Shown: piece after piece, positions 575 through 5,815 of the stretch
Position numbering within the stretch: the first letter of the stretch is position 1
Layout: each line of letters begins with the position of its first letter
NCBI RefSeq assembly: GCF_024700885.2
Contig: NZ_CP117016.1
Reading direction: 5' to 3' (one strand)
From: Escherichia coli
GTDB taxonomy: Bacteria > Pseudomonadota > Gammaproteobacteria > Enterobacterales > Enterobacteriaceae
DNA: 64,000 bases
Notes under the pieces: model-generated
What the model was told of the DNA's origin: nothing
Seen by the model: only the letters and a program-made list of their open reading frames with translations
Databases searched by the model: none
Made by a program: the position numbers and the translations under genes

Positions 575-3500
575 TTAAAGTGATTTACGGCAGGCGGTCA
601 GTTGGGGGCTGGAATCAGCGTCGCTTCCGGTCATACCGGTTAGCATCTGCACATAGTAATGCCTATTGTAATCATCAGATTCATTTGTCCAGTAAGCACC
701 TTGTGTAAATTGCGAATTACTGGAAAACGCTCCAACGTTCCCCCATTCACCATACAGTGATCCCTGCGTGCGTTGGTTTTCGCCAGACGTCAAATGTGTG
801 ATGCCAGGAAGATTATATCCATCATTTTTCGCATGACAGAGCGCATTGGCAGCTAGCCAGATATTGGTATGATTTCCATTATTCACCCACCAGCCTTTCA
901 GCTTAATTAAGGTCTGGTAGGTTGTACCTCCTTGTCGGGGAACAGCACTTATTGTGACTGACGTTTGATCGCCGATATTTGAGAAAGAAACTTTACCTGA
1001 CGCATCGACAGACACCCAACTCTGTGAACTTGAAAACATATAATCATCAACGGTTTTACCCGCTTCAAAGTTATCATTGTTGAGTGTGTAATACGCTCCT
1101 GCAAAACCTTCGCTCGGGAATTTAGCCGTGGAGAAGGTATGGTTGTTTGCAGTGACATGACCGGACATTTCTTTTATCGATTGGATGAGATTCAGCGATA
1201 CGCTTAATTTTGCCTGATGAACCCCGTTCAGCATGGGAATGAGGGTCGCTGTTCCCTCTTTTCCGCCAGTGACAGTCACGGTGTACTCGCCATAATTTCT
1301 TTGGCTGTAATCAATATCGCTCAACTTGAGAAAGTTCACGAAGGGACCTGACTGGACAAATTCCAGATGATCAGACGTCACTATCGGGTTACCGTACTTG
1401 TCTTGCAATGTTAGCGTAAGTTTCGCGCTATGCTGGTAGTCAGCCATCAGAGTGCCAACGTCGGATTTCAATAATGACTTACTTTCATCCGCCGTGCTGG
1501 CAAGCAAGGTAATAGCTGCGGATTGGTTGGCTGTACCAGGAACTTGCACATTGACCGTTAAGGTTTCTGCCAATGTACTGGTTATTGTCGCCGTGACTTG
1601 CCCGGACTGATCGGTACGCGTAGTTGGAATATTAACTACCGGGCGACCTTTGGTGTCTAAGGCGTAACGAACATCGACACCTTCAACCGGGAATCCGTAA
1701 TCATCTTCTACTCGTGACGTGACGGTGCTGCTATCGATGCCGTCGGCGGTTATGGTGTCAGGAGAAGCCACGACGCTCACAACATGTGCCGTTTTAGCAT
1801 CTGCCTTAACCGCAACCGTTACTTGGCTCTGAACGGGAACATCTTTGCCCATTGTGGCCGTAACGGTATAGACATTCACTTTGTCACTGGTCAGCGTCAC
1901 TTTGGCCTGACCATACTGGTCAGTAAGTATTTCCCCTGTATTGCTTAGCGTTGCACCTTCAGGCGTTACGCTAAAGGTGATAATTTGCCCTGGCATCAAT
2001 TCATCCCGTGCATTTCTCGCCGTTGCGGTCAGCGTAATACCTTCACTGTTATGGACCGTGGTTTCTGGCTTCGATGATGTTAACTCGAGTTTGCCATTTG
2101 CCACATTCACATCAACCTTACTACTACTGTTATTGTCCAGCGTTGCCGTCACCTGATAAACCCCAGGCTGGGTGCTGAGAAGGTTAACGTACGCGTAACC
2201 GTTATTATCAGTGTAAGCCGTATCGCCTATCGTAATGTTAGCTGTTGGCTGCGCACTTAATCTGACGCGTTGACCCGCTATTACATTGTTAAACGCGTCC
2301 TGGACGAGTATCCGTAGCGTGATGTTTTCGCCAACCGTTATCGTTTTTTCGGCTCCGGTTATACTTATTACCTTCGCCGAACTTTCATCCGGCAGCACTG
2401 ATAAACTAAACGTTTTATTATCGGAGGCTTGCGCTTTCCGGCTCACCACGACGTTATGTTGCCCGGCAATATTGCTGGTCATTGTTACTGTCGCCTGACC
2501 CAGTGTATTGGTGGTGACTTCTGTTCCACTTAGAGTGACATCGTTACTCTGGAAAGTGACCAGCTGGTCTTTAAGCGGATTTTGGTAAGCGTCCAGGATC
2601 GTTGCCGTCAGGGTACTCCCCGTACTGTTACCCGCAACAATGGTATTTAATGAGGCAGTCAGCGGCTGGAGCTGCGCGCTGTTTGTATCCCCAATAAAAG
2701 TGACTTGCTGATGAGCAACGGTATTATTTCTGGTCAGCGTCGCCGTAACTGTAAACTCACCCGCTTTTGTGCCACGCAATGTGACCACGGCATCGCCGTT
2801 TGCATCGGTGCGGGCGGTTTCACTACTTAGCGTGAAGTTCCCGGTCATGGAGGCTGGCAAGGTAAATTTCACATCCTCATCCGGCAACGGGTGTCCGTAA
2901 ACATCTTTCACACTGGCTGTCAGGATAACGGTATTTGTATTGTTAGCGATCGCACTGCCCGACCCGGCATTTAAGGTCATTACCGATTGTTCCCTGTTTG
3001 GGACCACGGTGATCGTGACCGACTGGTGAATATTTTTATCCGCCTCAAGCGAGGCATCGACGGAATAGCTACCAGCTTTTGAACTGGTCAGGTGCACTCG
3101 CACAATACCGGACTGATCTGTTGTGGCGGACGTGTTGTCCAGTTGCGAGCCACCAGGTGCCACAAAATTCACTTTCATATCTTTTAATGGATTGTTATGA
3201 AAGTCTGTGACGGTGGCGGTCAGAGTACTGCCCTGGCTGTTGCCAGCAATAATGGTATCTGGATCGGCAACCAGTTGTTTGAATTTTGGCGTACTCGAAT
3301 CGCTAACGAATTTCGCAATTATCCGTTGTGAGAAACCATTTGGCAGCGTGGCACTAATCGTATTTTCTTCCGCAACCTGACTTACCATGTTGATTGTGGC
3401 AACACCGTATGCATCCGTATTTTGCTGCGGCGGTTCGACAAATTCCGCGCTTCCTTTTTCATTCTTAAAGGTGACCTGATGATTTGTCAGGGGATTATCA

Positions 3501-5815: not shown

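Follow-up and report, generated by a model that had tools for sequence, protein, structure and literature searches.

IatD and its described relatives

IatD received its name in 2019 from Goh et al. (mSphere, PMC6714894), who worked with the 5241-bp gene EcSMS35_4876 of Escherichia coli SMS-3-5, and it is the closest described counterpart of a gene found at positions 575–5815 of the 64,000-nucleotide stretch of E. coli DNA analysed here (contig NZ_CP117016.1, hereafter the window). In a flu mutant of K-12 that over-expressed it, the SMS-3-5 protein was located at the cell surface by immunofluorescence and promoted biofilm formation, and it conferred neither autoaggregation nor binding to extracellular matrix (ECM) proteins (PMC6714894). 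In the same study complete iatD was present in 6% of 126 genomes and in 10% of strains of the E. coli reference collection (ECOR), with amino acid identities above 98%, and variation in the number of its repeats was not found (PMC6714894). A description of the gene has thus been in print since 2019, covering domain plan, patchy distribution and biofilm phenotype, and RefSeq lists it under its name.

Among the relatives of IatD the closest characterised paralogue is YeeJ of K-12 (PMC5595812), whose LysM domain bound peptidoglycan in the experiments of Martinez-Gil et al. in 2017 (PMC5595812), and which shares with IatD the promotion of biofilm on over-expression. IatC, encoded at a locus other than that of iatD, is a protein of variable length (2459–2965 aa, PMC6714894). 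Yersinia invasin and the intimin (Eae) of enteropathogenic and enterohaemorrhagic E. coli (EPEC and EHEC) provide structural points of reference for the comparison that follows.

An intact allele of iatD

A single long open reading frame (ORF) runs from an ATG start over positions 575–5815 of the window on the minus strand and encodes 1746 aa (1746 codons and a stop), with no overlapping ORF of more than 73 aa in the other frames across these positions. Its coordinates and length are exactly those given by an earlier prediction made from the letters of the window (hereafter the original prediction), which had read it as an adhesin of the intimin/invasin family. A megablast search of positions 1–7300 against 5426 complete E. 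coli genomes found a counterpart matching at 100% in MLI114, a strain from human stool in Mali that is identical to the window over the whole 64 kb, and in which the RefSeq label on the corresponding copy is 'iatD: inverse autotransporter IatD'. Relative to the SMS-3-5 prototype, identity amounts to 98.11% at the amino acid level and 98.2% at the nucleotide level, both genes being 5241 bp long, both proteins 1746 aa, and the 33 amino acid substitutions that separate them being accompanied by no insertion or deletion. Published iatD cloning primers match exactly at the two ends of the gene (primer 4372 at 5797–5815 on the minus strand and primer 4373 at 575–596 on the plus strand), and the published antigen-fragment primer matches at 1112–1129 on the minus strand. 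The position between kptA and yjiJ is common to SMS-3-5, O157:H7 strain OK1, MLI114 and MFDS1019527, and in SMS-3-5 the gene order (kptA, iatD, yjiJ, a gene for an SdiA-regulated-domain protein, a pentapeptide-repeat gene) is that of the window. Membership of the IatD orthologue group is established by this combination of prototype identity, shared locus, primer matches and RefSeq name. We therefore read the ORF, with a probability that we place at about 0.93, as iatD in an intact allelic form, a gene already known to encode an accessory inverse (type Ve) autotransporter adhesin in E. coli.

Domain architecture

The order of domains along the protein defines an inverted topology, in which a signal peptide (aa 1–45) and a β-barrel (aa 148–423) precede a passenger composed of immunoglobulin (Ig)-like modules (aa 435–1640) and a tip extending to residue 1746. 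The extended signal peptide (5681–5815, minus strand) comprises a charged n-region, a hydrophobic core, LTAGVCLFTQIFFPVMATA, and a likely cleavage site at ATA/QN, and the N-terminal signal region is collinear with the N-terminus of YeeJ. It is followed by a LysM-like motif of predicted periplasmic location (aa ~69–118; 5462–5611, minus strand), assigned from a sub-threshold Pfam match together with 79% identity to the LysM region of YeeJ. The barrel itself (4547–5374, minus strand) is recognised at aa 148–423 by the Pfam family IAT_beta (PF11924) with 365.1 bits, where the cut-off is 22.3 (E 3.5e-109), and a sequence search of the PDB retrieved for it the invasin barrel 4e1t (E 1e-81) and the intimin barrel 4e1s (E 2.6e-67), while invasin 1cwv matched the passenger at aa 1257–1713 (E 3.9e-23). 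The invasin-type barrel, for which the original prediction had proposed a Pfam domain check, is thereby borne out. An inverse-autotransporter barrel, its N-terminal location ahead of a C-terminal passenger, and Ig-like passenger modules, the features of the type Ve family, are all present in this protein, and by analogy with the published result for the 98% identical SMS-3-5 protein the passenger would be exposed at the cell surface.

The rod following the barrel consists of eleven Ig-like modules of the Big_1 or invasin-D3 type (aa ~435–1548; 1172–4513, minus strand), for which Pfam gave eight stretches of Big_1 (401.5 bits) and nine of Invasin_D3 (295.4 bits), and an iterated self-profile bounded ten Big_1-type modules within aa 544–1541. 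Modules at residues ~435–529 and ~642–736 are weak in such profiles. An AlphaFold model of aa 424–760 built on 12 relatives (predicted local distance difference test, pLDDT, 88) contains three β-sandwich modules, and its best Foldseek matches in the PDB are FdeC, intimin D00–D0 and invasin, supporting a predicted Ig-like fold for these two modules as well. A further Ig-like module, resembling invasin D4 (aa ~1549–1640; 896–1171, minus strand), makes up the first half of the tip superdomain; its Pfam score (Invasin_D4, 25.8 bits) is slightly below the cut-off of 27, and HMMER aligns it to invasin 1cwv. Counting this module the total comes to twelve by self-profile, Pfam and AlphaFold/Foldseek, in keeping with the dozen or so that had been predicted.

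No Pfam family matches the last ~105 residues of IatD, so that assignment of the tip domain (aa ~1641–1746; 578–895, minus strand) called for structure prediction. From 1.84 billion representative proteins searched, 267 family members emerged at E ≤0.001, and with 44 diverse relatives from among these the last 201 residues were modelled by AlphaFold at a pLDDT of 97.3. Foldseek placed invasin 1cwv D4–D5 first for this model (template modelling score, TM, 0.83; E 1.8e-12; 24% identity), followed by intimin (3ncx, 1f00) and then by snake-venom and human C-type lectin-like domains. The passenger has no cysteines other than Cys1660 and Cys1742, both in this domain; they correspond to columns in which cysteine is almost invariant across the aligned family (Cys115 and Cys197 in the numbering of the modelled fragment). 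In the predicted structure a C-type-lectin-like domain, with its conserved disulfide, has an Ig-like module packed against it, the arrangement of an invasin-type D4–D5 tip, and the family assignment, barrel, Ig-like modules and C-terminal lectin-like domain of the original prediction all stand. The substitutions relative to SMS-3-5 are unevenly spread over these domains, 16 of the 33 lying in Ig modules 9–11 (aa 1246–1548, window ~1172–2080), where 5.3% of residues differ as against ~1% elsewhere; a small recombination patch or a locally relaxed constraint could be responsible.

Comparison with the named relatives places the protein closest to its prototype, with which it shares gene, locus, length, primer sites and neighbours and from which it differs by the substitutions described. 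YeeJ is closely similar over the N-terminal third of IatD, with amino acid identities of 79% in the LysM region, 87% in the barrel and 83% in the first Ig module (77% nucleotide identity over iatD nucleotides ~199–1819), whereas the passengers are only ~44% identical after the second module and the tips 43%. Both proteins end in a D4 module and a lectin-like tip, but YeeJ is encoded elsewhere, near tRNA-Asn and mtfA, is 2358 aa long, has more Ig modules and occurs in length variants. Yersinia invasin (1cwv, 4e1t) resembles IatD in its barrel, its tip and the conserved disulfide pair of the lectin domain, but carries four Ig-like modules before the tip rather than eleven, is 24% identical to it in the tip, and the invasin-type NCBIfam models score IatD far below their cut-offs, as do the SinH, Ilp and YchO models. 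With intimin IatD shares an overall plan in which a LysM-like segment and a barrel are followed by a rod of Ig modules and a lectin-like tip, intimin D00–D0 resembling the first modules and D2–D3 the tip; unlike intimin, however, it has a much longer stalk and a locus without the context of the locus of enterocyte effacement (LEE) or Tir, and it scores 361.8 bits with the NCBIfam model intimin_all, whose cut-off is 1400. The best NCBIfam model for IatD is Ve_IatC_Nterm (aa 12–838), at 1132.6 bits against a cut-off of 2400, and what IatC and IatD have in common is a plan of LysM-like region, Big_1 modules and lectin-like tip.

A plausible course of assembly can be outlined from knowledge of the type Ve family, the data on IatD itself being surface exposure and biofilm formation on over-expression. 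The extended signal peptide would direct export through Sec, after which the LysM-like segment would be retained in the periplasm and bind peptidoglycan, and residues ~148–423 would become a barrel of 12 strands, placed in the outer membrane by the β-barrel assembly machinery (BAM). The C-terminal passenger would be threaded through this barrel as a hairpin, its Ig modules folding sequentially outside to give an external rod of ~1300 residues, eleven Ig-like modules followed by a superdomain like invasin D4–D5. The last ~105 residues, a C-type-lectin-like domain stapled by the disulfide, would thereby be displayed far from the cell surface, and this predicted lectin-like tip is the probable ligand-binding end.

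The locus as an alternative haplotype

To the left of iatD lies the 3' part of kptA, on the plus strand. As the original prediction stated, kptA directly precedes yjiJ in K-12, the gap in BW25113 being 12 bp, and iatD is indeed an extra gene at this point. A simple insertion between the two genes does not, however, describe the locus. In a blastn comparison with K-12, identity is 97.6% up to position 422, within kptA, of which the last codons differ; positions 423–6047 (iatD with its flanking intergenic regions) have no match; positions 6048–8108 (yjiJ–yjiK) match at 80.9%; positions 8109–10945, with a gene for a 758-aa pentapeptide-repeat protein, again have none; and from position 10946, which is 26 nt into the DUF3343/ytiA gene as counted from its 3' end, the match restarts at 95.8%. 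Positions 423–10945 thus form a 10.5-kb block, an alternative haplotype (haplotype B) that carries iatD, divergent alleles of yjiJ and of a yjiK-like gene, and an EspX6-like gene, where K-12 has 2.2 kb of yjiJ–yjiK instead. The yjiJ allele (6026–7204, minus strand) encodes a 392-aa transporter of the YbfB/YjiJ type in the major facilitator superfamily, and the yjiK-like allele (7275–8114, minus strand), named from RefSeq annotation, matches the Pfam SdiA-regulated family at 2.2e-91. The pentapeptide-repeat gene (8381–10657, minus strand; 36% GC) is a homologue of an O157 gene annotated as the type III secretion system effector EspX6.

Identity to the yjiJ–yjiK segment is strictly bimodal over 5375 genomes, 636 of them at ≥95% and 4739 at ~81% with none between. 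Complete genomes carrying iatD number 638 of 5426 (~12%), those with the EspX6-like gene 635, and a contiguous kptA–iatD–yjiJ match was obtained in 635 by the search with positions 1–7300; iatD is accordingly no universally conserved core gene, universal conservation being a result that would have told against the original prediction. On these near-equal counts, about 12% of complete E. coli genomes would carry the block. Between the haplotype B and K-12 alleles of yjiJ, dS is 0.89 and amino acid identity 89.5%. Each E. coli YjiJ allele has the other as its closest relative, both being 70–76% identical to the proteins of Citrobacter, Salmonella and E. fergusonii, and import of haplotype B from another named genus was considered and rejected on this ground, no donor being nameable. 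By its sequence, the block resembles an old alternative haplotype without an identifiable donor.

There are no flanking direct repeats at the ends of the block and no insertion scar, and RefSeq annotates no insertion sequence (IS) or integrase between kptA and yjiL, for which reason its most likely route of spread is homologous recombination by way of the conserved flanks rather than a mobile element. Such exchange fits the mixed status of sequence type (ST) 95 in Data Set S1 of Goh et al., in which S88 is iatD-positive and IHE3034 and RS218, also ST95, are negative (PMC6714894). Among 100,044 species-representative genomes scanned, no iatD orthologue was found, only paralogues at 31–47% identity. 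A 79% match on a contig of a metagenome-assembled genome labelled 'Bacillota' has the N-terminus of YeeJ, and was set aside as a yeeJ-like fragment.

The pentapeptide-repeat gene deserves separate mention. Over the first 11.5 kb of the window, true tandem repeats are confined to it (a 24-nt unit in 9.9 copies at 8487–8723, and arrays of 9, 18, 27 and 36 nt at 9035–9170), and its protein differs in length between strains, with 758 aa here, 657 in SMS-3-5 and 731 in O157 OK1. Length variation of the kind that the original prediction expected of iatD is seen instead in this neighbour.

Competing readings of the gene

That expectation amounted to a contingency adhesin, in which long, near-identical Ig-like repeats recombine and so alter the length of the stalk. 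Precedents exist in the family, since in Yersinia ruckeri the invasin-like molecule has nearly identical Ig repeats and YeeJ comes in two length variants (both cited in PMC6714894 and PMC5595812). Within iatD, however, Tandem Repeats Finder detected nothing, a search for repeats inside the gene returned only two chance pairs of 21–25 nt, and pairwise identity among the twelve modules does not exceed 40% at the amino acid level (median 19%) or 48% at the nucleotide level, which, judged on sequence, is far below what homologous recombination requires. Length is likewise constant, the best 120 protein clusters (97–99% identity) all being 1746 aa save one of 1747, and the full-length genomic copies among the matches listed measuring 5241 or 5242 bp, in agreement with the published absence of repeat-number variation (PMC6714894). 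The description of the repeats as near-identical was thus mistaken, and stalk variation by their recombination is refuted for this gene. A different proposal, that the tip binds β-1 integrins and that IatD, like invasin, is an invasion factor promoting uptake by host cells, draws on the structural model of the tip, whose best match is invasin D4–D5, and on an HMMER alignment that sets Asp1665 against invasin Asp911, with Cys1660 beside Cys907. Invasin Asp911 is a residue that we take to be critical for integrin binding. Against this stand the tip identity of 24%, the location of Asp1665 at C+5 rather than C+4, and its lack of conservation in the family alignment; since relatives do not conserve the residue, the likeness of the tip to invasin, including the Asp1665/Asp911 pairing, may be taken as a lead and not as a test. 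Adhesion to ECM proteins was, moreover, not seen for IatD (PMC6714894), and a role in invasion is quite improbable.

Several observations weigh against the preferred reading, that of an intact allele of an adhesin gene, and some of them would suit the alternative of a cryptic, near-silent and decaying gene that is kept by hitch-hiking in its haplotype and has no current adhesin function. All phenotypes of IatD come from IPTG (isopropyl β-D-thiogalactopyranoside)-driven over-expression in K-12 and none from a native host (PMC6714894), and expression of the paralogue yeeJ under laboratory conditions is very low (PMC5595812). The AT-rich region of 210 bp upstream of the gene (5816–6025, minus strand; GC 0.43 in that bin) has no clear promoter, one weak sigma-70-like match lying at 6011–5982 and the promoter scan being at chance level (9 matches against 7.8 expected from shuffled sequence). 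At the protein level the signal peptide was recognised by inspection of the translation, and Pfam LysM (PF01476) reaches 14.9 bits against a gathering threshold of 20.9 (E 0.026), covering profile positions 9–29 only, so that the LysM of the original prediction is only weakly confirmed. The co-occurrence of all three features of the haplotype is suggested by their near-equal counts and the 635 contiguous matches. Most directly, the gene is broken in part of its range. A C-tract at codons ~58–63 (5627–5644, minus strand), interrupted and in frame in the window (CTCCGTCCCC), is an uninterrupted C7 in other alleles, and in O157:H7 it is lengthened from C7 to C8 at codon 59, which brings a stop at codon 67 and accounts for the copies of 5242 bp. 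This exact C8 pseudogene allele is present in 284 genomes of O157:H7 type, C8 occurs on a second allelic background in three genomes, where the gene is flagged as frameshifted, and IS2 splits iatD in at least one genome, that of a cattle isolate (NZ_CP169309.1), whereas in O55:H7 USDA5905 and O157 AR-0430 the tract is C7 and the gene intact. The negative scores of Sakai, JEONG-1266 and Xuzhou21 in Data Set S1 of Goh et al. (PMC6714894) fit with the O157:H7 frameshift. From the frameshift and the IS2 insertion it follows that iatD is dispensable in some successful lineages. Yet in the remaining ~350 genomes the 5.2-kb ORF is intact and of constant length, and among intact alleles dN/dS is 0.13–0.17 in barrel, rod and tip, values indicating purifying selection where the gene is unbroken and unexpected for a neutral relic. 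Decay without function is, on this balance, an unlikely account of the gene as a whole.

The intact-allele reading also has a more far-reaching extension, in which iatD would be part of an old, co-inherited four-gene haplotype for host interaction, together with the deeply diverged yjiJ and yjiK alleles and the EspX6-like gene of variable repeat number, balanced at ~12% against the short form of K-12, transferred by recombination and equipped with a C7 slippage hotspot. In that case slippage at the hotspot would have inactivated iatD on two or more occasions, one of them in the O157:H7 ancestor; the scheme as a whole is improbable. The sequence facts beneath it are solid; joint action of the four genes, selective maintenance and a reversible switch at the C-tract are conjectural. 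The idea of C7/C8 as a fast phase switch was rejected as the main reading, given that 284 genomes share one C8 allele and only three have it on another background, a pattern suggestive of infrequent slippage events that were then inherited clonally.

Flanking sequences

The ribosome-binding site of iatD, GGAAGG, is located 7 nt before the ATG. Directly after the stop codon, a hairpin at 533–560 (minus strand; GGAUACCCU-loop-AGGGUAUCC) has a predicted RNA folding energy of -22.4 kcal/mol (z -4.5), with no shuffled sequence as stable, and it is probably a terminator, with a short U-tract, common to iatD and the convergent kptA. The kptA gene is itself flagged as frameshifted in O157 OK1. Between the two genes, positions 442–529 contain an element resembling a repetitive extragenic palindromic (REP) sequence (GCCTGATAAGCGCAGCGCATCAGG), which is 79% similar to the K-12 Rpn/yjiR intergenic sequence. 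An Rfam scan of positions 1–11500 gave ES036 over this region as its sole match, which was rejected as sub-threshold (28.4 bits against 37.6), and the element near 470–505 is treated as an ordinary REP.

Other loci in the window

Elsewhere in the window, the interval between yjiS and yjiA holds a penicillin G acylase gene (19556–22096, plus strand). In K-12 this interval presumably houses the hsd/mcr/mrr 'immigration control region'; the yjiS–yjiA interval of MLI114 has no restriction genes annotated. A complete hpa cluster for the catabolism of 4-hydroxyphenylacetate, which we take to be absent from K-12, lies at 25937–37057 between btsT and tsr. At positions 55269–64000, beside yjjG, a tyrosine integrase is accompanied by a CHAT-domain protein of 710 aa and by prophage-like genes (yfdP/Q/R, ymfK/L/T and ash), and this region has the look of an integrated element that may include a defence gene.

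Significance

For the biology of the family, the analysis corrects for iatD the notion of length variation driven by repeats, and assigns the gene to a 10.5-kb alternative haplotype rather than to a simple insertion. The structure of this haplotype and the recurrent poly-C frameshift, discussion of which was not found in the two papers mentioning IatD, are modest points beyond the published work on the protein. The poly-C pseudogene of O157:H7 matters wherever IatD is to be listed as an adhesin of EHEC or as a vaccine antigen.

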